From: Eledone cirrhosa
Taxonomy: Eukaryota
DNA: 64,000 bases
Reading direction: 5' to 3'
Assembly (NCBI GenBank): GCA_964016885.1
Contig: OZ024746.1
Span: forward strand, 79,794,001 to 79,858,000
A program made the position numbers and the translations under genes. How positions within the stretch are numbered: position 1 is the first letter of the stretch; each line of letters begins with the position of its first letter. Positions 1,212-62,478 of this stretch are shown piece by piece. The notes beneath the pieces were generated by a model, which saw only the letters and a program-made list of their open reading frames with translations, did no database searches and was not told the DNA's origin.

Positions 1212-2234
1212 TCATCTGTATTCATTAATGTAATTGCCATTGTTTTCTATGACTTTAATCCACCTAGCAGGCAATTTAAATATTCCACCGGCATAGAACT
1301 CGGTTGTTTTTAAGAAAAGGAATCGTTTGTGTGGGTTTTGTCACCATCTAAATCATTAAATGATTTTCCGTTTAGAGAGGTCTACAGAGACAAAAACAAA
1401 TGATAATCAGATGATGCAATGTCAGAGGAGTATAGTGGATGGGGAAAGACATACCACCCAAGTCCAGGCAACTTTGTACGGGTAGCAAAAGACTCGTGGC
1501 CCAGCATTATTCTGGTGAAACACCAACCCATTTCTGTTGAAGGGCTCTGGCCTCAAGTCCTTGATCTTCTGATTTAAATTTGCAAGGTGACGGCAGTACA
1601 TATCAGAATTGATGCTCTGATTTTGTGGGAGTAGCTCAAAATAAATAATGCCTTTGAAATCCCACCAGACACAAAGCATGACCTTTTAATGAATATTCTG
1701 CTTTGGAAGCTGTTTTGGAGGATCCTCAAGTAAACATCAGGATCTTTTTCTCACTATATTATCGTAAACAATCCACTTTCATCTCCAGTTACCAGTTGTT
1801 TCAGGAAAGGCTTAGTTTCATTGCGTTTCAGAAGCATATCACAGATAGAATACCGGTCCTTTCAGTTTTGTTCTGACAATTTGTGGGGCACCCAAACATC
1901 ATAGCCAGAAACATACACAAGTTTCACTAAGTGTTCGTGAACGGTACTTTTGGAAACTTCTGGTCGTAATGTTCGAGTTTTCTTCAATGGCTACCTTCAA
2001 AATATCATCATCTAAGGTTAAGGGCCTTCTACAGCGACTGTCATCTTCCAAGCTGAACTCACCACGTTTAAATCTAGCAAACCATCTTCGAATAGTTAAT
2101 TCTCCTACAGCATCTTCACCATAAACTCCACAAATTATTTTGCACGTTTTCGCAGCATTTTCATCTTTTTGGAGGGAGAAGAAAAGCATTAAGTGCCGAA
2201 TATGCAACTTTTGGTTATGTATGTCAAATGGCAA
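1212..2234 (-). pseudogene. Mariner transposase pseudogene
   Basis: Motifs are spread over several frames (ORFs 1899-2234 and 1422-1679) with stops and frameshifts. The second catalytic Asp (HHDNA consensus) reads HQNNA. Confidence 0.9.
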
Positions 2235-7645: not shown

Positions 7646-8465
7646 TGTGTGTGTATATGTGCGTTCAATAATTTTCCTATAATATAAACGAACGGAAATT
7701 GAGCGGTATGTGGTTTGGGTACAGGGAAAGGTTTTAGAAATCGACAAAAGAAATAGTAATAATGAAACACCAACAATAACACCAACAACGACATCACCTA
7801 CAACAACACAACAACACCATAAAAATCAACAATAGTAAAAATAAAAAAAAATTGAAATTGTGGTTAAATCATGAACAACAGCTACAGTAACAACAACAGT
7901 TATAACAACTACCCCAACAGTAATAATAAAAACTACAAGAACAACCGCAACAACAATTGTAACAGCAATGATAGACAAGCTTATTTCTTTTTATTTTTAC
8001 TCTCCAAAAATTGGAGCTAAATAAGAAGAGATTTTGTGTGTTCAGAAAGGTTATTTTCTGTCGCATATGTTATGACATTAGGGTATGGGACTGAAAGGCG
8101 TTCAAACACCGACGTGGCCAAACATACTTTTATCTTTCAAGGCATCGGTAGATGGATGTTTGATAAAATATGCACCGTTCAATACTAGGATCCTTTTATT
8201 TTCACGTTTGCCTGTGTATATATTATCTAGTTATCATACCGTTTCTCCTCTAATCATATTGTATATAGAAGCGAGATAAAATATAAAGTACTCAATACAT
8301 TTGATGAAGTTTATTTCTTTACGGCAATGAAGAGAAGTACAAGAAAGCTTGGGATATATATATAGCGGAGGATGGCTACTTCTTTTTCTGTATTTTAATG
8401 GTCTTCACTCTATTTTATAAACTATTTCTGTAGCACCTCTGCGCTTGAGTGCATCATCCTTTATA

Positions 8466-14301: not shown

Positions 14302-14440
14302 GAGTATAGTGAGTAGGGGAATTTCAAGTAAGTGTGTTTATCGCAGTAATTTAGAGAGGGTGAAATCTAAAACAGCAAGCAGAGGAGATAACTGATGCAA
14401 TATCAGCTTATTGCTTATTCCAGCTTTTAAAAAAATTATA

Positions 14441-14631
14441 ATAATTGTTTACTTTCGACACAAGGCCAGCAATTATCCCAGTGTATTACTGGTACTTTGT
14501 TTTATCGACCCCGTAAGGATGAAAGGCAAAGTTAACCTCGGTGGGATTTGAACTCAGACCGTAAAGGGGCGTAACTCTATGCTACAAAGCATGGCGTCCG
14601 ACCCTCTACCGATACTGCCAATCCCGCACCC
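14441..14631 (-). mobile_element. tRNA-derived SINE (Meta-like central domain)
   Basis: Reverse complement of the 53510-53698 family (head ...GAGTTCAAATCCC, body GCCTTTCATCCTTACGGGGTCGATAAAA). The tail is partly duplicated at ~14647-14698. Confidence 0.9.
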
Positions 14632-15478
14632 TAAAAAAATGTATAATAATTGTTTCTACTTTAGGCACAAGGCCAGCAATTACCCAGTACATTACTGAAA
14701 AAAAATTATAATAATGCAATGAAGGAAGGTCTCGTCTTTGTATCTACTAGACTTGTTTCGATCTTGTTAAAGTTCTTCAGTGAAACATATTCGTTTGTTG
14801 TTGAGTTGATTAGAATGCCCAATATAAAGAGAGAGAAAGAGAAAGAGAAGACTATGCATTCTGAATATGTATATCAACATATTAGTGTATATCGTGTGTG
14901 GCAGTGAAAGAAAGAAAGAAAGAAAGAAAAAAAGAAAGAAAGAACAAAAGAAGAAGAAAACAAAAAGAGTGAGAAAATATGCGGAGTTAATTATTTCTAA
15001 AAAAAAAAAACATTATACACTATTTTGGAGGGTAAAGACTCACAATATTAGAATATAATTAGTTCGTAGATTGAAAAATAGAATCTATTGTTTATTTAAG
15101 TGGAATGAGTTATGTTAACTAATACAGAAATGAAATTAACTGTGATTAAAAATAAACTGTTTAAAAACAAACGACGATTAAAAATGAACCACAGTGATTT
15201 AAAATGCGAATTGTCATATTACTGCTAAATATGTTTTCTAATTTAAGTATAAAACCAGCAATTTGAACAGTCGATTTCAATCGACCCTGGTATTTGACTG
15301 GTACTATATTTTACCGACTTGGATAGGATGAAAAGCAAATTTCACCTCGACGGAAGTTGAACTCAGAGCGTAAAGCATCGCCGAGCCATAACTAAATACC
15401 GCCATTATTTTCTGCCAAACAAAATAAAATATATTACTAATCTTATTTAAAATACGAAATAGTAAAAAAGCAAATATA

Positions 15479-19440: not shown

Positions 19441-19640
19441 AGAAAAATGTATGACCCCGACAGCAGAGCTCAAGCCGTTTCGACAGCTATTTCTATTTCT
19501 ATTAGTCCAGAAATAGCCGTCGAAACGACTTGAGCTCAGCCGTCGGGGTCATACATTTTCCTATTACCCACTCTACTACCCTAAGTAATGAGTACTGTGG
19601 TGTGTTATGCTCCATCTGGTTCCTTACTACAACTCCTTCG

Positions 19641-19641
<1 letters not shown>
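19441..19641 (+). mobile_element. (TA)n-embedded fold-back element, family C
   Basis: Inverted 5' duplication (~19441-19560) and a 3' end CCTTCGT|TATA shared with four other copies. Confidence 0.8.
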
Positions 19642-20134
<493 letters not shown>

Positions 20135-21789: not shown

Positions 21790-22070
21790 ATAAGATCAAA
21801 AGATGGTTAAAAGAGTTTCATGTATTTTATTATGCGCATTTCAAAAACAAATATCATCGTGAGATGACATTTGTGTTTTCGTCAGATAAAATAGGGAGAC
21901 ATGATATGAAGGTTAAAAAACACTTGTGAATAGTGCAGTTTTAAATCAACATATGGAACTCTTTTAACCATCTTTTGATCTTATATTATTTATACTCCAG
22001 TCCTACAAACTGTAGAGTGCTACTTATCCGATATCTGCATTGCTTTATTGTAATAATAAAACTCACCTCC

Positions 22071-22073
<3 letters not shown>
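21790..22073 (-). mobile_element. HHR-bearing element, family B, second copy
   Basis: Reverse-complement homolog of 19713-20001 with essentially the same internal inversion junction; flanked by (TA)n. Confidence 0.85.
21823..21893 (-). ncRNA. Type I hammerhead ribozyme (family B)
   Basis: UAUUUUAU-CUGACGA-AAACACAAAUGUCAUC/ucac/GAUGAUAUUUGUUUUU-GAAA-UGCGCA-UA-AUAAAAUA, with an 8-bp stem I. Confidence 0.87.
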
Positions 22074-22116
<43 letters not shown>

Positions 22117-24341: not shown

Positions 24342-24791
24342 GGGTGGTGGTTTGGCAATATCGGTAAAGGGTCGGACACTATCTATGCTTTGCAGCATAG
24401 AGTTACGGCCCATTATGATCTGAGTTCAAATCCTGTCGAGGTTAACTTTACAAGATCGATAAAATAAACCACCAGTAATGCACTGGGGTTGATTAATCGA
24501 TTTTTCCCGTCCCCCAAAATCGCTGGCCTTGTGCCTAAAATAGAAACAATTATTTGCTCACTGGGGCGGTGGATTAGCAGTATTGGTAGAGCGCGGGTCA
24601 CTAGGCTTTGCTGCATAGAGTTACGCCCCTTTACGGTCTGAGTTCAAATCCCGCCGCGGCTGGCTTCGCCTTTTATCATCCTTACGGGGGCGATAAAATA
24701 AAGCACCAGTAATGCGCTGGTGTCGATTTAATAGACTGTCCCTGCCCCTTCAAAAATTGCTGACCTTGTGCCTAAAGTAGAAACAATTATT
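24342..24791 (+). mobile_element. Two adjacent head-to-tail Meta-like SINEs (24342-24553, 24564-24791)
   Basis: Two full head-body-tail matches. Confidence 0.88.
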
Positions 24792-24964
24792 TGTTTCCAT
24801 TTAATGACTGGCCGTATATTGTTTTACTATAAATACCTTGTCTTAGCTTTTAGAAATCAATTACGCGGACAGCGATATTCACGAAACTCCTACGTAGTAG
24901 TAGCAGTAGTAATAATATGTATGTATTACACATACATATAGGTATATATATATATATACGTACG

Positions 24965-25301: not shown

Positions 25302-25359
<58 letters not shown>

Positions 25360-25511
25360 AAATGCTCTGAAATAGCGATATATATGTGAAGATAGACATA
25401 GAATATTCGAAAATATTCTGTATGTTTATAATAAACATTTTGAAGACCTAATCGCTATAGAATAGAATACGTCACGTATTACAATTAGATTCTCGATAAA
25501 AGCAAGGGAAG

Positions 25512-25552
25512 TAACCTACGCGTTTCATTATTATTAGAAATCTTCAGGATTA
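25512..25552 (-). ncRNA. Minimal type I hammerhead ribozyme (weakened stem II)
   Basis: UAAUC-CUGAAGA-uuucuaauaauaau-GAAA-CGCG-UA-GGUUA. Confidence 0.65.
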
Positions 25553-25768
25553 CATATCCAGTGCTTTTATCGAGAATGACACAGCTAGAGACTTATAGAA
25601 TACTTAGCTGTGTACAGGAACTGGTTTGAAAGAGCGGTTGCCGGTCTGGCAGAAATTAGAAATTGGATTAAATGCTCTGAAATAGCGATATATATGTGAA
25701 GATAGACATAGAATATTCGAAAATATAAGTCTCTAGCTGTGTCATTCTCGATAAAAGCACTGGATATG

Positions 25769-25809
25769 TAATCCTGAAGATTTCTAATAAGAATGAAACG
25801 CGTAGGTTA
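25769..25809 (+). ncRNA. Minimal type I hammerhead ribozyme
   Basis: UAAUC-CUGAAGA-uUUCU/aaua/AGAAu-GAAA-CGCG-UA-GGUUA. The palindromic ACGCGU stem III is typical of PLE minimal HHRs. Confidence 0.78.
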
Positions 25810-25940
25810 CTTCCCTTGCTTTTATCGAGAATCTAATTGTAATACGTGACGTATTCTATTCTATAGCGATTAGGTCTTCAAAATGTTTATTATAAACATA
25901 CAGAATATTTTCGAATATTCTATGTCTATCATATATATAT

Positions 25941-26044
<104 letters not shown>

Positions 26045-26052
26045 TTATTTAT

Positions 26053-26280
26053 ATTTATTTATTAAAATAACAGATTAAAGTTTAAGCAAAGAATCGCTGC
26101 TTTCACCCTTAACGGGATCTTTTGAAAATCCCGTTAAGGGTGAAAGCAGCGATTCTTTGCTTAAACTTTAATCTGTTATTTTAATAAATATTTGCTCTAC
26201 GGTTCTTATATATTTGATATATATTTATCCTTATCGAGCACTCTTTGGATTTTAGTCTTCAAATTTATTATTATTACTAT
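26053..26280. mobile_element. (TA)n-embedded fold-back element, family E
   Basis: ~65-bp inverted arms around 26119-26127. The distal part (26205-26280) recurs inverted at 56580-56652. Confidence 0.7.
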
Positions 26281-40855: not shown

Positions 40856-40857
<2 letters not shown>

Positions 40858-41068
40858 CGAAGGAAAAGTGGTAAAGAACCAGATGGACCATAACGCACCA
40901 AAGTACTCAATACTTAGTGTAGTAGAGTGGGTAATAGGAACGAATAGGACCCCGACGGCTGAGCTCAAGCAATTTCGACGGCTAATTCTGGACTAAATGA
41001 ACATTTTCATTTAGTCCAGAATTAGCCGTCGAAACGGGTTGAGCTCAGCCGTCGGGGTTCTATTCGTT

Positions 41069-41070
<2 letters not shown>
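40856..41070 (-). mobile_element. Family C fold-back element in (TA)n
   Basis: TATA|ACGAAGGAAA end; folds back at ~41002. Confidence 0.85.
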
Positions 41071-43061: not shown

Positions 43062-43437
43062 CGAGGGTCGGCTGAAAACTTCATAGGGTGACCAAGCTAT
43101 TTTCATGGAATGACCAAATGAGATTTATTTTTCAACGTATTCCCCGGAAAGAAACTATGCAGTTATTAATAATTGTTTCTACTTTTGGCACAAGGCCAGC
43201 AATTACCCAGTACATTACTGGTACATTATTTTATCGACCCCGTAAGGATGAAAGGCAAAGTTAACCTCGGCGCGATTTGGACTCAGAATGGCAAGGGGCG
43301 TAACTCTATGCGTCAAAGCATGACGTCCGACCCTCTACCGATACTGCCAATAAGAGATGGAATTAATGCATGTAAGATTTCACAGCTCCAGCATCATTCC
43401 TTCATATTCAGCTTATGAACTTTTCAGCCCACCATCG
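43062..43437. mobile_element. Mariner-type MITE interrupted by a SINE
   Basis: TA-flanked imperfect TIRs CGAGGGTCGGCTGAAAACTTCATA / TATGAACTTTTCAGCCCACCATCG. Confidence 0.8.
43169..43351 (-). mobile_element. Meta-like SINE nested in the MITE
   Basis: Family match. Confidence 0.9.
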
Positions 43438-46850: not shown

Positions 46851-47340
46851 CATTCTGTACACATTGGTTAAATCGTGTAAAGCAACCAATTTAAAATTCA
46901 TTCTGAATACTAATACAGAGAAACCGTACTATGAGAAATGGACACCATGCTGGTGTTATTTAACGGATATTTTAGAATGCTAAGCTACTGCTACATCACG
47001 AAGTTAATTCGAATGTCATATGTCTATTCTTCGTTTTAGAATTCCAATATCTCAAGAATATTACATAAATATTTAGCTACATAATTTAACATAATAATAA
47101 TTATCGGTATAAATCAAAAGTTATGATTAAGATGGATACAGCCATGTAGGATTGAGTTACTCAGTTGAGGAAAACATTTCATAAAAGTAAGTGAAATGGA
47201 GAATCTTGTTGGTCAGTAATACGGTGTCTATCAAATAACCATACAACCATACATATTCTCGCTCTTTTGTGCTAAAAATTAAGTAGGATTCATATAACTG
47301 AAGTAAGTGATTTCAACATATATATATATATATAAATATA

Positions 47341-47420
47341 AAATACAATATGTTGAAAAGGTAACACACTACAGAGGGGTAGTGTGCCACCAATAAAACA
47401 GGGTCCGTTAATTTATCGTG
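47341..47420 (-). mobile_element. Family D fragment with inverted end
   Basis: AAATACAATATGTTGAAAAGGTAACACAC...CAATAAAACAGGG plus inverted TCCGTTAATTTATCGTG, both found in 58002-58808. Confidence 0.75.
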
Positions 47421-47715: not shown

Positions 47716-48830
47716 ATGTATGTATGTTTTTATGTATATATATACAGTGGGAGGGAATGAGAGCGAGGGGGTGAATAGGAGATCTTTATTTGATCGCACC
47801 TCATTTAACACAATAGGTGTTGAAATCTATCTGAATGAAAATATTCTCTGTTGTTCCATTGTATTTTCTAAGAATTTATTTAATGTCAGATATAGATGGA
47901 ATATTCTGGCAGTTTATCATCTTTTCAAATGTACATAATCTAAAGCTTTGTTATTATTTTGAATTGGTCTAATAGAGCAATACTTTCGATGAATCTCGCC
48001 ACAATGTGATGATTTATAGGTATGTAGCACTTCACTGATATATTCAGACAGCTAATAAAGAAAAGAGACACATTTCCCACAACAACTTGACACACATAAC
48101 CAACATTTATTTTGTATCATATTGCCCCTAAAAGCATCTCTTTCTCGTTCATTAAGAACATATTTAGTATTTGTCAATTTTCGGTGAAGTTATAGTTTTC
48201 GAAATATTAAATGATATTGAAGATCGCTCTTTCAAGATAATTTAACCTGTTTGATCAACTTACAGAGGAAATAAATGTTCTTCGTTTACAGATTTTTTTT
48301 TCTACCACAATATATTCATAACATCTCTAGAATTGGTCCGCTGAGAGGAAATACTGTTGACACTTCGACCGAGTGGTTTTAGGCATATTACATTTTAAAA
48401 TATATTTAAAAAGCTAAGATCAAAACCTAAAACATGACCATAGATTAAATATCATTCCATTCATGTACTTCCTGGACATAAATCCTACCAGGGTCTCACA
48501 TACCCTTTCATCTTCTCTGTGTCGATAACATAAATATCTTACACATAAGGCGTTGGGTTAGCAGCATTGATAGAGATTTAGACAAAATATTCTACTTCTC
48601 TGTTCAAGTTCTACCAAGGTTGAATTTGTCTTTCACCTTCCTAGAGTTAATAAAATAAAATACCAGACAAGTATTTAAGTCGATATAATAGACTGCCGAT
48701 TAATTCCAACATTGTACTGTATGAAGCTCAGACGATAAGCTACACATCAATATTCATTCACACATACATTCATTCATTCATGTGTGTGTGTGTGTGTGTG
48801 TATGTATATATATGTATGTATGTATATATA

Positions 48831-48970
48831 TTAGTCCAGAATTAGCCGTCGAAACGGCTTGAGCTCAGCCGTCGGGGTCCTACTCGTTCCTATTACCCAC
48901 TCTACTACCCTAAGTATTGAGTACTTTGGTGCGTTATGGTCCATCTGGTTCCTTACCACATTTCCTTCGT
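48831..48970 (+). mobile_element. Family C element in (TA)n
   Basis: Same sequence and CCTTCGT|TATA end as the other copies. Confidence 0.85.
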
Positions 48971-49489: not shown

Positions 49490-49693
49490 AGTTATATAAT
49501 AAACAACATAAGATAATTATTTCATTTACCAGTGGTTTCTTGAAGGCAGGTGTATGTCTGTCTTCAGTCGTCAGAATGAATAAATAACATAAAAACACCA
49601 TGTTATTTATTCATTCTGACGGAAGACAGACATAACACCTGCCTTCAAGAAACCACTGGTAAATGAAATAATTATCTTATGTTGTTTATTACA

Positions 49694-49963: not shown

Positions 49964-49965
<2 letters not shown>

Positions 49966-50069
49966 CGAAGGAAATGTGGTAAGGAACCAGGTGGACCATA
50001 ACGCACCAAAGTACTCAATACTTAGGGTAGTAGAGTGGGTAATAGGAACGAGTAGGGGTCCTACTCGTT

Positions 50070-52350: not shown

Positions 52351-53509
52351 TATTTTTTCTTTTATCTAGTTTTCTTACCTGTATTTTTTGTTTGTTTTAT
52401 GTATATTTGTTTATTGATGTTTTTATTTATTTTTGTTTTGTTTTTCGATTGTTTATTCATGTTTTTGCTTTTTTAAATATTCATTTTTCATTATTTATTA
52501 ATTTACATATATTTATTCGTTTTGTTAATGTATGTTTGCTCATAAGTGTTCTTTTATATTTAATTTTATTCATTTATTTACTCATTATCTATTTATCTAT
52601 TGTTTTTTTCTTTGTATGTTTGTTTGTATGTGTGTATTTTTTTATCAATGACTTTTATTTATTTATCTATTTGGTTATTTATTTATTTATTTTACAGCTA
52701 TTTAGTTTTTCCTGACTGAAAATAGAAAAAAATACTGGAAAAAGGAAAAAAAGAAAAGAGAAAAAGAAAACAGAAAAGTGAAAGAAGGTAAGCAAGTTAC
52801 AAAAGTTTGGAAAGAAAGTTGGTGTATCTAAACAGAAAATAAGGAGATCGAAGAGAGGGTGAAATGTTAGTGGAGGGGTGGGACTGGTTGATAGGATGCT
52901 GGGGGGCTACAGAACTGTTTAGGACGTGTGGGAGAATAAAGGAATATAGTTAGGATGGAAGAAAAGAAGCAACATTTGAACGACGACCATGTAAACAAAG
53001 ATGACGACTACAAGACTGAAAATTGCTAATTTCGATCGCATCATCTCCATGGGTCTTTTAATTCCTACAAAGCAGCAAGGCACACACATCGCCATACATG
53101 TGCCTACATTTCAAGAAGATCCGGCTTTACGCAGACTAGCAGAAAAACCACCCGATGGGTGGTTTTCTGCTAGCATAGGTGGTGTGCATATCTATATTAT
53201 ATGCAACTATATACACATGTAGATATGATGTCAAATAAAATCGTGATTGACAATATGCACAGAAATTGAAGAGAGACTGTGCTACACACTCTTCTGTAAT
53301 CAGTAAAGTAATCCGCGATACATTTAAATATAAACTGCATTACGGTGAAATTTAATGAAACCTTATATAACGATGCAAATATATGGATGTTTATATAAGC
53401 AATGTAATAAGTGTTATGATATAACTGACGCTAACCAGAACTGAAGACATTTGAAAATTTTAAAAGAAGTGAAACTTAAAATAAGCAATCATTATATATA
53501 AGAATATAA

Positions 53510-53698
53510 GGGCGGTGGATTGGCAGTATCGGTAGAGGGTCGGACGCCATGCTTTCCAGCATAGTTATGTCCCTTTGCGATCTGAGTTCAAATCCCGCCG
53601 AGGTTGACTTTGCCTTTCATCCTTACGGGGTCGATAAAATAAAGTACCAGTAATGCACTGGGTAATTGCTGGCCTTGTGCCTAAAGTAGAAACAATTA
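53510..53698 (+). mobile_element. Full-length Meta-like tRNA-derived SINE with 17-bp TSD
   Basis: A-box TGGCAGTATCGG, B-box GAGTTCAAATCC; TSD ATTATATATAAGAATAT at 53491-53507 and 53695-53711. Confidence 0.93.
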
Positions 53699-54898
53699 TA
53701 TATAAGAATATTTATGTTTAATCAACAGCTACGAAATTTAGTAGATAAATTATGTAATATTCATTCATGATTTATTCAAAGTAATTAAACTTATTTCACT
53801 AACGGGATAAAAAAATATATTCAGGATGCAGTCTCCGTCTCTTCCCTTTATTATAGTTATGATTTGTGTAACATTGTACGAAGTATCCCTGCTGACAATA
53901 TAATATTTTTCCTTTGAGATTTCACTCCAGGATTTAAGTAGCGGGGAAAGAAATACTTGGTAAAAAAATATTGAAAAAGGCAAATGCAACAAGAACATTC
54001 TTTCAGAAGAGAAATTACTATGGCCAACACTATTTTTCAGCAGAAAGACAGCGTAAAGACAACCTGTCACCATCTGGTTACATCCACCTAAAAAGCATTA
54101 GCACATGAGATAATATTGTAATAAGTTGCTCGCCTGAATTATACCCAGTGTAGAGTGTGGTCCTGTGTATTGCACATCCAGTCTCCATTTAAGACGTATG
54201 CTAAAGGGAGGAGGTGTTCCAAGTAAAATATTTCAAGTTTGGAAGCCCTAAGTTGCAAAAGTCAATGGTGGTAATCAGTCGAATCCTGTCTAGTAATCAA
54301 TATATATATATATACATATATACAAATATAAATATGTGTGTGTGTGTGTGTGTGTTTATGAGAGAGAGAGGGAGAGAAAGAAAGGTATATACAGAGAGAG
54401 ACAAGGAAAATGTATGAGCATGTGTTTTTGAGTGGAGGGGGAAGGGTTACATATGTTTCAGTGTATAAAGGTGCACGAATGGATGTGTATGTATGTACGC
54501 ATGTATGTATATATTTATGTGTGTATGTATGTACACATGTGTAAGTATGTGTGCGCGTGTGTACGTTTGTGTCTGTTAAAAAGGATAGTTATGTCTATAA
54601 GTAGGAAAATAGCTAAAGCAAGACTATCAGCCTGGCAGAGAAAGAAATAATTCTGTCAATTAAAAAGAAATGAATCTTTAATTATCAAGAAAATCCACTC
54701 GAAAATAATCACAGACAATAAAATTGCCGTCATTTGCAACAGAAGTTCACCAAAAAATCCTTTATCACATAATCTCGAGAGAAATTCTAAGAAATGAGAG
54801 GCAAACAATAAAACAAATGAATACATATATACATATGTATGTATATATAAATATATATATATATATGTGTGTGTGTATATGTATATATATGTGTATAT

Positions 54899-56377: not shown

Positions 56378-56652
56378 ATACATAATGGCAGACATAAAAA
56401 TATTATGGCCCCTTTAATGCCTGCCAACATATTTTCCGCCAAATATAGAGCTTCAGTTTTAGTGCGCTAAAGAGACATAAATACGAGATATGTTTTCTAT
56501 ATACATACACCTACACACACACGTACACACACGCGCGCGCGCACACATACATACACACACACACATATATATATATATAGTAATAATAATAAATTTGAAG
56601 ACTAAAATCCAAAGAGGGCTCGATAAGGATAAATATATATCAAATATATAAA

Positions 56653-56692
<40 letters not shown>

Positions 56693-56760
56693 TAGATATA
56701 CATATATACATACATACGTATATACATAACATATATATATACATACATATATATATATAT

Positions 56761-57120
56761 TAGAATTGGTGCTCTGAAATAGCGATATATATATGAATGT
56801 ATATACAGTGTATTTTGCAATACACTGTATGCTTAATTAAAAGCATTTTGAAGACCTTACGCTATTGTTTTAAAGTAGCCACAGTGTCACTTACTTCAAT
56901 TTTCAGCAAACAAGGGGAGATAAGCTGAGAGAGCCCTGTTGTTGGTACTTTTCAAAGCTCACCACTCCCCCTGTTGTTGAAAATTATGAATGTTGGATTC
57001 TTATAGAATTCCAGTAATAGTCAGGAACTGATTATACAGAGCGGTTGCCGGTCCAGCAAAAATTGAAAATTAGAATTGATGCTCTGAAATAGCGATGTAT
57101 AATATATATCGCTATTTCAG
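56761..57120 (-). mobile_element. Diverged member of the 310-nt family, no HHR core found
   Basis: Direct repeat at 56761 and 57071 (period 310). Shares GCTCTGAAATAGCGAT, CATTTTGAAGACCT, CAGGAACTG and AGAGCGGTTGCCGGTC with 25353-25725; short fold-back at 57083-57120. Confidence 0.8.
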
Positions 57121-57350
57121 ATAAATGAAACGAGCTAGAATAAATAAAGTAAGAAAGTTCAACATACAATTTATATGCAAGTTAGTCTCCTGGGAGTTTA
57201 TAAATATACATATGGACATAGATACACAGAACCATACGCATGCAGACATGCACACAACCATCAATCCTACATACATATACACACATTAAAAGTAAACAAC
57301 AATACGACAATGACATGCGTATAATGATTCTGCTGAATAGCAGAATCATG

Positions 57351-57558: not shown

Positions 57559-57649
57559 GGGGTTATATTTAATTTGTTGGGATTCAACAAGCTTAAATTT
57601 TTTTATAACTGATATAAAGCACCCGACAATTTAGTGGAGTAAATATACA

Positions 57650-57974
57650 ATACAATATATTAACAAATGGAAACTATATTTATAAAACCATATTTATTTT
57701 ATTATACATATTTCAAGGGCCACCAAGGCAAATTTTGGTGCGCTTTCATCAGATAAAATACAATACAGATTTGTTTTATAAATAAATATTGACATACCCT
57801 GAAAAAAGACAACCTTAACGTTTGGAGCTTCCTGACTATCCAGGAAGCTCCAACCGTTGTATTGTATTTTATCTTATGAAAGCGCACCATAATTTGCCTT
57901 GGTGGCCCTTGAAATATGTATAATAAAATAAATATGGTTTTATAAATATAGTTTCCATTTGTTAATATATTGTA
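57650..57974. mobile_element. Fold-back HHR-bearing element adjacent to (TA)n
   Basis: Inverted arms ~57650-57767 / 57858-57974; central hairpin at 57821-57853. Confidence 0.82.
57695..57760 (-). ncRNA. Type I hammerhead ribozyme
   Basis: UAUUUUAU-CUGAUGA-AAGcgCACCAA...UUGGUGgccCUU-GAAA-UAUGUA-UA-AUAAAAUA; the 8-bp stem I is identical to family B. Confidence 0.82.
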
Positions 57975-58001
57975 TATATATATTTATATATATATATATA
58001 T

Positions 58002-58802
58002 CACGATAAATTAACGGAGCCATAGGCCCTCGCCATTCCGTGTAAATAATGTGCTCAAAGGAGAAGAAATCCTGAGCTCTTTAAAATACAATATGTTGAA
58101 AAGGTAAGATACCAGAAAGAGATATACAGTGCGCTATCAATAAAACAGGGAAAAAACCACCAGTGTATGGAATCTATAACCTATGAAAGGCAGATTATAG
58201 ACACGATAATTAAAAATATAAATTAAAGCGTAAATAAAAACCTCTATAATTATATAACACACGTACAAATCCAAAGAGATGTTTCGCCAGTAATTTGTTG
58301 ACAGAAATGGAATAACCGAGGTTCATCAGCGTGTGTTAGGCTATACATTTCAGACACACTAAGAGGATTTTTAAAGCGGCCGTCCAACTACACGTGGGAG
58401 AGAGAAGTCACAGCGTGTTTAAGGGCAGTGAAGCAGTGGCCTCTGAGGGACGAGCTGCTAGAAAGGGCAGCCCAAAACCACTCAGAGAAGTGTGTTCAAC
58501 CAAACAGAGAGACAGGAAAGACTGTTATAAGGAGCGAAATATTCACGATAAATTAACGGAGCCATAGGCCCTCACCATTCCCTGTAAATAATGTGCTCAA
58601 AGGAGAAGAAATCCTGAGCTCTTTAACTTACAATATGTTGAAAAGGTAACACACCAGAGAGAGATATACAGTGCGCTATCAATAAAACAGGAAAAAAACC
58701 ACCAATGTATGGAATCTATAACCTATCCATACACTGGTGGTTTTTTCCTTGTTTAATTGATAGCGCACTGTATATCTCGCTCTGGCGTGTTACCTTTTCA
58801 AC

Positions 58803-58808
<6 letters not shown>
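58002..58808 (-). mobile_element. Family D: 542-nt-period HHR element with long direct repeat and inverted end, in (TA)n
   Basis: CACGATAAATTAACGGAGCC at 58002 and 58544 (~180-bp direct repeat). 58726-58808 is an inverted copy of ~58091-58170. HHR at 58256-58337. Confidence 0.88.
58256..58337 (-). ncRNA. Type I hammerhead ribozyme (family D)
   Basis: AACACACG-CUGAUGA-accucgguuauu...aauuacuggc-GAAA-CA...UG-UA-CGUGUGUU. Perfect 8-bp stem I and GUA triplet; predicted cut between 58264 and 58263. Confidence 0.83.
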
Positions 58809-59012: not shown

Positions 59013-59323
59013 CATGGTGGCTGCCAACTCGTTTTCGAGTACGGCCACTACTTTATATCCATGTAGGAGAACCCCTACCGATGCGCTGAACGAATGTGAC
59101 TTTTTAGTCCAGCCAGCGACTTGACAACTCTGGTACAAACACTACACTTGTGACAATTATTGACACATAGTGCTGGACCCATGGTACCATGTGACGACAA
59201 GTGCAGAGAGATCTCCAGATATAAAGCAATGCCTGTGCTGTGAAGCTTTTATAGTGAGCAAAGGCACTACACAAAGCCAGTCCCACTCTCTTAACCAAGA
59301 TGATATTTACCAAAAAGAAGAAC
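59013..59323 (-). mobile_element. 5'-truncated copy of a short RTE-derived element with (ATGT)n tail
   Basis: Reverse complement of ~62172-62478. Confidence 0.88.
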
Positions 59324-60148
59324 ATACATGCATACATACATACATACATACATACATACATACATACATACATACATACGTACATACATACATACATACA
59401 TACATACATGCATACATACATACCATGTGACGACAAGTGCAGGGAGATCTCCAGATATAAAGCAATGCCTGTGCCGTTAAGCTTTTATAGTGAGCAAAGG
59501 CACTGCACAAAGCCAGTCCCACTCTCTTAACCAAGATGATATTTACCAAAAGAAGAACATACATACATACATACATACATACATACATACATACATACAT
59601 ACATACATACATACATACATACATACATACCATGTGACGACAAGTGCAGGGAGATCTCCAGATATAAAGCAATGCCTGTGCCGTGAAGCTTTTATAGTGA
59701 GCAAAGGCACTGCACAAAGCCAGTCCCACTCTCTTAACCAAGATGATATTTACCAAAAGAAGAACATACATACATACATACATACATACATACATACATA
59801 CATACATACATACATACCATGTGACGACAAGTGCAGGGAGATCTCCAAATATAAAGCAATGCCTGTGCCGTGAAGCTTTTATAGTGAGCAAAGGCACTGC
59901 ACAAAGCCAGTCCCACTCTCTTAACCAAGATGATATTTACCAAAAGAAGAACATACATACATACATACATACATACATACATACATACATACATACATAC
60001 ATACATACATACCATGTGACGACAAGTGCAGGGAGATCTCCAGATATAAAGCAATGCCTGTGCCGTGAAGCTTTTATAGTGAGCAAAGGCACTGCACAAA
60101 GCCAGTCCCACTCTCTTAACCAAGATGATATTTATCAAAAAGAAGAAC
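59185..60148. repeat. Five ~138-bp units separated by (TACA)n spacers
   Basis: Units at 59185, 59421, 59628, 59815 and 60010, each TACCATGTGACGAC...AAGAAGAAC. Confidence 0.95.
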
Positions 60149-60241
60149 ATACATACATACATACATACATACATACATACATACATACATGATGGCTGTC
60201 CCCTCGTTATCGAGTATGGCCATTGCACGAGAAAAAAAAAA

Positions 60242-60287
<46 letters not shown>

Positions 60288-60496
60288 GGCGCACTGGGGA
60301 CTATCTCCAAAGGTTTCCAGGGATGGTTAAAGAAAATCGGCCCCTTCACGCTTTTTGGAACGCTTCAAAAGGCATGCTTGCTTGGAACAGCAAGAACCCT
60401 CCGATACGTCCTGAATATCTGAGGCTGCAGGTAGTGGCTTGATATTCAATCCAACGGACTTTCCAGTTAACCAACATCAATGACTGAGATTCAAGG
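60288..60496 (+). mobile_element. 3' end of an R4-clade (Dong-like) non-LTR retrotransposon in (TAA)n
   Basis: IGALGTISKGFQGWLKKIG...LQKACLLGTARTLRYVLNI* is the R4/Dong C-terminus. It has a short 3' UTR and (TAA)n on both sides, the known Dong target. Confidence 0.88.
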
Positions 60497-62080: not shown

Positions 62081-62478
62081 ACCCCTTAGCCTTTGTCAAG
62101 GCAGAATTCTAGGAGAAGGAAAACTCTGATATAACACCTGCAGCCCTGATGGTATCCAATGATGTTGACTTGTTCTTCTTTTTGGTAAATATCATCTTGG
62201 TTAAGAGAGTGGGACTGGCTTTGTGCAGTGCCTTTGCTCACTATAAAAGCTTCACGGCACAGGCATTGCTTTATATCTGGAGATCTCTCTGCACTTGTCG
62301 TCACATGGTACCATGGGCCCTGCACTGTGTCAATAATTGTCATAAGTGTAGTGTTTGTACCAGAGTTTTCAAGTCGCTGGCTGGACTTAAAAGTCACACT
62401 CGTTCAGCGCATCGGTAGGGGTTCTCCTACATGGATATAAAGTAGTGGCCGTACTCGAAAACGAGTTGGCAGCCACCA
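62081..62478 (+). mobile_element. ~400-bp bipartite RTE-derived non-autonomous retroposon in (ATGT)n
   Basis: RTE 5'-UTR-like CTAGGAGAAGGAAAACTCTGA (62109-62129), C-terminal C2H2 CSVCTRVFKSLAGLKSHTRSAH, 3' stem-loop GTGGCCGTACTCGAAAACGAGTTGGCAGCCAC and (ATGT)n tail. Confidence 0.8.

Follow-up and report, generated by a model that had tools for sequence, protein, structure and literature searches.

A likely non-LTR retrozyme in Eledone cirrhosa with the insertion anatomy of Penelope-type elements and a candidate domain for reverse transcriptase recognition

The insertion described here, copy A, occupies positions 25352-25930 of the window, by which we mean the whole 64-kb stretch of DNA that was analyzed. 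It consists of 1.21 copies of a 310-nt unit and a head-to-head inverted part of 207 nt, and it lies between TA tracts. The RNA sense of the unit is the minus strand. The sense part (25352-25726, minus strand) is 375 nt long, made of one 310-nt unit and a 65-nt terminal repeat. The segments 25352-25416 and 25662-25726 are identical at 65/65 nt, which bears out the 310-nt monomer claimed in an earlier note on this DNA. The 3' end of the sense part at 25352 adjoins the left TA tract (25304-25351, 48 nt) with a 2-nt AT microhomology. The inverted, 5'-truncated part (25724-25930, plus strand) is identical to 25391-25597 at 206 of 207 positions, overlaps the sense part by 3 nt at the junction, and runs up to the right TA tract (25931-26040, with a longest pure run of 86 nt). 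The two tracts, which we regard as the target, adjoin both 3' ends; measured on the unit, the left end reaches 39 nt beyond the right one. These 39 nt (25352-25390, minus strand) are found at the left 3' end only, between two putative RT start points, and form the tail of the insertion. The earlier estimate of about 1.2 monomers holds, while the inverted "copy" that went with it covers two thirds of the unit and not the whole of it.

The unit has a GC content of 33.5% and is non-coding; the longest ATG frames in the sense strand of a unit trimer are 26 and 28 codons (26 in copy A). Folded as a circle, it is more stable than its shuffles (z of -5.9 against 150 dinucleotide shuffles), as is the unit of the sister copy described below (z of -4.7). 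Neither of these two loci is a pLTR attached to an ORF. Sequence-level criteria for a retrozyme are a type I hammerhead in a non-coding unit of 150-450 nt with GC below 50%; with a type I hammerhead in 310 nt at a GC fraction of 0.335, insertion A works like a non-LTR retrozyme by those tests.

The hammerhead (25511-25553, minus strand) is of type I. It has a stem I of 6 bp, the CUGANGA box, a helix II of 4 bp standing on a U-U pair, the GAAA box, and a helix III of 2 bp with a palindromic ACGCGU, and cleavage is predicted after 25517 (GUA). Every core letter expected from the earlier claim of a ribozyme here is present between 25553 and 25511, and the CUGANGA, GAAA and UH elements occur in order with stems I-III in both arms of copy A. 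In the sense arm, helix II carries one mismatch private to this copy; the second hammerhead, in the inverted part with its core at 25774, has helix II intact. The lowest-energy fold of the stretch lacks the active core, and the match to the Rfam model HH9 reaches only E=0.24, below the gathering score. The U-U at the base of helix II and the 2-bp helix III are as in the axolotl HHR_Amex2 (PMC7229834), and hammerheads of the canonical metazoan type I build are reported to cut poorly alone and better as dimers (PMC4209133; PMC7229834). The hammerhead sits on a long stem (25489-25577, minus strand), as the earlier note had it, of 16 bp (25577-25562 with 25504-25489) and not the 15 bp counted there.

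A sister copy, copy B (56759-57121), was found by Blast of the element against the window. It is 66% identical to A over the unit, has the same period of 310, and is collinear with A around the whole unit. Its sense part (56759-57101, minus strand) is a 310-nt unit with a 33-nt repeat (31/33 identical), and a 20-nt inverted piece lies at its 5' end (57102-57121, plus strand), where the right flank is not a TA tract. The 3' end adjoins a TA tract and falls at the same place as in A, 12 nt after AGAGC, of which 2 nt are AT microhomology in both (n=2 copies). On neither strand was a hammerhead core found in copy B at 56918-56964. Despite the missing core, it retains stem I and the long stem, and in the latter both sides have changed at 5 of 11 aligned pairs. 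Hairpins 1 and 2 of the domain described below are likewise kept through compensating changes. Because these other stems are intact and the two repeats differ at only 2 of 33 nt, we infer from this one copy that the core was already missing in the parent of copy B and did not decay in place. Profile and descriptor searches of the 64-kb window returned only A and B, plus one unrelated descriptor match at 8406.

The strongest conservation between A and B does not lie in the ribozyme. It peaks in a domain around the unit junction (104/138 aligned columns, versus 79/140 in the hammerhead-bearing middle) that takes in 106 nt on the upstream and 31 nt on the downstream side of the main end, about 140 nt in total, with invariant runs of 14 nt (both sides of GGUCU), 16 nt and 23 nt. 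Its 5' module (25364-25458, minus strand) begins with a P1 stem closing a multiloop that holds a free GGUCU (25448-25444), hairpin 1, hairpin 2 (with a UUCG loop, GCAA in B) and a weak hairpin 3 carrying an (AU)4 tract (25385-25378), and AGAGC follows. In the 3' module (25631-25678, minus strand), the stem P4 (AGAGC/GCUCU) encloses a U-rich single strand together with P5, a hairpin with a loop able to pair with GGUC(U). The motifs behind this architecture had been pointed out in the earlier note, and all are in place on the minus strand: GGUCU, the hairpin at 25651-25639, AGAGC at 25368 and 25678 with GCUCU at 25635, and the stem of AUAGCGAU at 25458 with AUCGCUAU at 25379. The putative RT start lies inside the U-rich single strand of the 3' module, at 25662/25661 in that register, and the insert end falls in the least conserved, unpaired part of the domain.

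The folding of this domain across the junction is seen in both copies, with P4 at a pair probability of 0.7-0.95. Among 42 chosen pairs in 7 helices, 8 show changes on both sides between A and B and none is broken, a result matched by 2 of 500 shuffles, although the helices were picked from the consensus of both sequences and the test is biased in their favor. It omits stem I and P1, where the MAFFT columns are shifted; both were counted by hand. In an unbiased test, with pairs predicted from one copy alone, changed pairs were kept at 16/33 and 16/37 (p of 0.08 and 0.06); two-sided changes co-occurred there (p of 0.005 and 0.001), which is confounded by regional divergence. P1, P4 and the loop pairing show no two-sided change, and P4 and six P1 pairs are invariant. 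In copy A the 8-bp AUAGCGAU stem competes with another helix (pair probability 0.5-0.62), and in copy B it is reduced to 6 bp. Four further families of the PLE type in the window lack the domain, which is thus not general among such elements here.

Those families belong to a crowded neighborhood, as the 64-kb window is rich in microsatellites and in small elements. Two elements of a different family from A and B, 92% alike and set in TA tracts, lie at 19713-20000 (plus strand) and 21790-22075 (minus strand), and a long terminal hairpin in each contains a type I hammerhead with an 8-bp stem I (cores at 19908, plus, and 21885, minus). At 58001-58806 the minus strand contains 1.34 copies of a 542-nt non-coding PLE-type unit that is inverted at its 5' end and flanked by TA; its anatomy is like that of A, it has a hammerhead-like core at 58329, and a related fragment lies near 47339-47403. 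Head-to-head inverted remnants with hammerheads on the minus strand (at 49574 and 57752) and TA-rich flanks are found at 49494-49683 and 57560-57985. Another small family, with inversions and flanking TA, is represented by four copies (19454-19641, 40857-41070, 48823-48970 and 49965-50056); three of them share one end, and no hammerhead was found in any. A 73-nt element with equal boundaries, 72/73 identical, occurs at 26206-26278, 276 nt from copy A, and at 56579-56651, 108 nt from B. The long near-perfect palindrome at 26060-26190, just past the TA tract of copy A, is probably another head-to-head remnant. There are also many copies of a tRNA-like SINE (for example 24572-24793, 14436-14697, 43163-43351 and 53507-53705), in which ARAGORN calls no tRNA.

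The family is found well beyond this window. Among the matches listed from public sequencing runs, 20 of 24 rows (17 studies) have part of the 310-nt unit; none is recorded as RNA, and five are guessed to be DNA. Four runs, designated X1, X4, X9 and X12, were examined at the level of contigs, which cannot reveal RNA ends. Run X1 contains 581 contigs of the family, whose depths add up to 2-5 x 10^5 across most of the stretch. The family is high-copy, and its multi-copy nature follows from these 581 contigs together with the second copy in the window. X4, X9 and X12 each give one 340-nt contig (310+30) in the form of a closed k-mer cycle, and the joint in X4 goes back 310. In each of the four runs, the share that continues into unlike sequence is 0. 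The dominant form in the runs is a closed 310-nt unit, with the head-to-tail junction visible and full dimers not resolved in contigs of 340 nt. We considered these cyclic contigs as proof of circular RNA and rejected them, since any DNA copy of at least 1.1 units (more than 340 nt) gives an equal cycle. The closed contigs of X4, X9 and X12 are single and of low depth (10-34), and they come under different organism codes and different studies; the plain reading is trace host DNA, and related hosts or RNA may account for them instead. The letter that closes helix II is carried by X4 and X9 and reaches only 17% in X1.

Among the variants listed for X1 there are ten; three restore a pair missing in copy A, two keep a pair as wobble or Watson-Crick, and the other five fall in loops, single strands or N7, with no invariant core base hit. 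The best-supported loose end among those listed is that of 12 contigs of X1 that start at 25378 behind TA letters. They represent a second class of end, at the (AU)4 tract, and correspond to a tail of 26-34 nt. Four contigs with a loose end at 25631 and two with one at 25673 belong to further relatives that share the domain and then diverge. Pattern scans for further members gave 0 matches in one scan of viral contigs and 1 in another, which is unrelated sequence; among metagenome contigs, 10/10 matches were GC-rich chance hits with no further likeness, and genome contigs gave 0 matches.

The anatomy of the insertion is that of a PLE. For EN+ PLEs, the insertion signature is described as a partial tandem, an inverted 5'-truncated neighbor copy, a 30-40-bp tail at one end and a (TA)n target (Craig et al. 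2021, PMC8557442; Arkhipova et al. 2013, PMC3846280), and insertion A shares all four. The partial tandem and adjacent inversion are 65 nt and 207 nt in A and 33 nt and 20 nt in B. The tail, an optional feature, is 39 nt in A; in B the inverted piece stops 16 nt from the 3' end, a poor fit to a tail of 30-40 nt. Unlike the EN+ PLEs, copy A has no RT-GIY-YIG frame, and its unit, complete at 310 nt, forms a closed cycle. It is reported from PLEs that pLTR sequences suffice for mobilization in trans and that hammerhead-less clades spread well (PMC8557442; PMC3846280). The nearest biochemical counterpart is PAc, Poseidon of the green anole (Frangieh et al. 2024, PMC11167929). Its protein cut and extended both target strands in vitro, and reverse transcription began at two internal sites whose spacing equals the tail. 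It needed the RNA from +20 to +172 around the starts, a span of about 150 nt; hammerhead cleavage was dispensable (PMC11167929). The PAc start is described as lying in an AC-rich stem-loop within the ORF with no homology to the target, whereas in our family the main end is located within a non-coding domain, in its U-rich loop, and a second end coincides with or lies close to an (AU)4 tract with the potential to pair with the target.

Since the anatomy matches EN+ PLE insertions and the span of the conserved domain is similar to the RNA needed by PAc, we consider it probable that a PLE protein acting in trans binds this domain and takes it as its signal to start. With like confidence, we take the non-coding hammerhead unit to be a parasite copied by a Penelope-type RT that binds the domain and starts inside it on a circular or multimeric template. 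In the proposed sequence of events, tandem master copies elsewhere would be transcribed. Hammerheads, likely dimeric through the palindromic helix III, may cut the transcript into monomers, and host ligase may close these, as has been shown for other metazoan retrozymes. A PLE protein with RT and GIY-YIG activities, supplied in trans, would bind the domain of about 140 nt through the P1 multiloop, P4, P5 and the probable GGUC/GACC pseudoknot, would nick both strands of (TA)n, and would prime two cDNAs. One would start 10-12 nt past AGAGC, within the U-rich loop, the other 26-39 nt upstream near the (AU)4 tract. The first would have crossed the hammerhead site uncut and continued 65 nt beyond one unit, and the two would have met head-to-head at the 3-nt microhomology. 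Twin priming of the L1 style on one multimeric template, which would yield an equal inversion, may have acted instead. An autonomous partner, probably of the Neptune type with TA as its target, was sought among 70 of 182 candidate frames of the window, where Pfam gave 0 matches to RT or GIY-YIG. What Pfam found was a mariner transposase in fragments (HTH_48 and Transposase_1; 1425-2234, minus strand) and a C2H2 finger, the latter in a repeated retroelement-like 3' end at 59016-60300 and 62113-62477. Locus A itself has 1.21 units and one hammerhead per strand; it cannot free a monomer on its own and is likely a product and not a source.

The first matter to be decided within this scheme is the template. 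The 375-nt cDNA crosses the site of cleavage and exceeds one full unit by 65 nt, and therefore needs either a circle or an uncut multimer as its template. A random template jump is excluded by the pairing across the junction in two diverged copies. The earlier note took the junction-spanning motif as a signature of circular RNA, which overstates it. The domain is split in the genome because the end of the insert falls inside it. The hammerhead cut is 165 nt from the 3' end of the insert, and the motif is whole in a linear cut-to-cut monomer too, which folds P1, P4 and P5 as well as the circle does. That the RNA is a covalently closed 310-nt circle copied by rolling round, as opposed to an uncut tandem transcript, seems to us to have slightly less than an even chance. 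The 65-nt repeat of A is identical in both places, including letters that are in the minority in X1 (25391/25701, at most 16%; 25358/25668, at most 9%), and the inverted arm carries the private letters of copy A at 7/8 variant positions, which points to one template sequence throughout. A homogenized tandem master would give equal identity, however, and the repeat of copy B differs at 2/33 nt. Retrozymes of like build in coral, mussel and axolotl are reported to make circles (PMC7229834). Against this, motifs with a weak helix III are described as poor cutters as monomers, and 8/9 Xenopus dimers remained uncut in vitro (bioRxiv 10.64898/2026.07.22.740005), while the main substrate of PAc was unprocessed RNA (PMC11167929).

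The second matter is the loop pairing. GGUC and GACC are unpaired in the circular folds of both units, and GACC/GGUC is the sole accessible GC-rich 4-bp loop pairing in both, whereas any such pairing arises in 5/250 mononucleotide shuffles of A. The AGACC/GGUCU complementarity reported earlier stands in copy A, but the perfect match is private to it. The family majority has GGACC, which makes a G-U pair; the G at this position of the P5 loop accounts for 98% of summed contig depth in X1 and is found also in X4, X9, X12 and copy B. On balance, a GGUC/GACC pseudoknot is somewhat more likely than not. A competing reading, which we find plausible if the less attractive of the two, is that the hairpins are real, there is no such pseudoknot, both short runs are conserved as sequence contacted by protein, and the P5 loop is a GAC triloop. 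The majority GGACC loop can indeed close the hairpin as a triloop, its G letting the first loop base pair within the hairpin. Five pairs drawn from a 5-nt loop are sterically doubtful, which also speaks for that reading, as do the pairs themselves, with 4/5 invariant between A and B and two-sided changes at 0/5. It does not account for the uniqueness of the pairing against the shuffles, nor for the G-to-A change of copy A, which breaks the in-hairpin pair and spares that of the pseudoknot.

It is quite unlikely that both loci are chance by-products of a full-length PLE, each a pLTR with a tail left by internal deletion or a template jump. Their insertion anatomy equals that of full PLEs, and the X1 loose ends at 25631 and 25673 could mark a parent. 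Such accidents would not be expected to give two 66%-identical copies that are collinear round the entire unit with the same period, junction-crossing pairing in both, or a closed 340-nt unit assembled in three runs with nothing running on into unlike sequence in any of the four. Highly improbable, finally, is the second, unclassified catalytic motif that the earlier note had offered beside an RT-recognition element, and for which we found no evidence: as a self-cleaving ribozyme making the 3' end, the domain would explain the independence of copy B from the hammerhead, and its long invariant single-stranded runs and pseudoknot-like topology would suit one, but the end falls in unpaired, U-rich sequence that is conserved least of all, which would not suit a catalytic core, each cDNA passes this site in its second round, neither half of the permuted motif, searched separately, matches an Rfam ribozyme (HH9 on the hammerhead aside), and a PLE in vitro had no need of cleavage (PMC11167929). 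The Rfam check suggested for the motif gave 0 matches at the gathering score in the window, and E-value searches of both loci gave weak hits only (2 and 10), none at the gathering score. The order of helices in the domain presumably sets it apart from HDV-like, twister and pistol ribozymes as well.

With the Penelope-parasite reading preferred, 25352-25930 is likely a non-LTR retrozyme, non-autonomous and with a candidate RT-recognition domain, and the retrozyme-like unit with a structured likely recognition element is the part of the earlier proposal that stands. The kind of element is known, with circles found in corals, mussels and axolotl. The metazoan non-LTR retrozymes of Cervera and de la Pena (2020, PMC7229834) have a 170-400-nt non-coding unit of GC below 50% with one type I hammerhead per unit, and a PLE was proposed as their mobilizing partner, as here. 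They differ in forming tandem arrays, where we see 1.21 units with an inversion and a tail, and a hammerhead-less sister copy. Circles were shown for theirs, and the parts of that report used here describe no RT-recognition domain or RT start site. Li, Clavereau and Pollet (bioRxiv 10.64898/2026.07.22.740005) conclude that non-LTR retrozymes derive from PLE pLTRs, in agreement on origin with our reading of copy A. Their evidence as presented is co-occurrence and pLTR phylogeny, mostly in vertebrates. Solo monomers are described there as common and are counted as family members, and the activity rule is two hammerhead units in tandem, by which locus A is not an active copy. The main text has no mention of pseudoknot, tail, initiation, secondary structure or the stem "mollus-". 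The open-access literature searched gave no pseudoknot at a retrozyme or PLE RT start and no paper on the 310-nt family; nor did it yield a conserved domain at an RT start, a retrozyme with a tail signature or a sister lacking the hammerhead. The family may already be catalogued in Repbase or Dfam.

The gain is mechanistic, as the recognition and copying of animal retrozymes are stated to be open questions (bioRxiv 10.64898/2026.07.22.740005; PMC7229834). A bolder reading, doubtful as a whole, is that the domain and not the hammerhead is what makes a retrozyme mobile, the RNA being a circle with a pseudoknotted docking domain for the telomerase-related Penelope RT, like a miniature telomerase RNA. 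It would require jointly that a pseudoknot and multiloop stand beside an (AU)4 tract, that this tract pairs with the (TA)n target, that the fold fixes the RT starts, and that hammerhead-less sisters such as copy B go unseen by ribozyme searches. Short of that, the 310-nt family itself carries the PLE insertion signature in its tail, inversion and TA target, and this points to an RNA domain of about 140 nt around the RT start. If that domain is the cis signal, it would explain why the genomic copies are permuted relative to the hammerhead-cut monomer. It would also predict hammerhead-less relatives that current searches miss, and it would offer a small tag for PLE-driven insertion.
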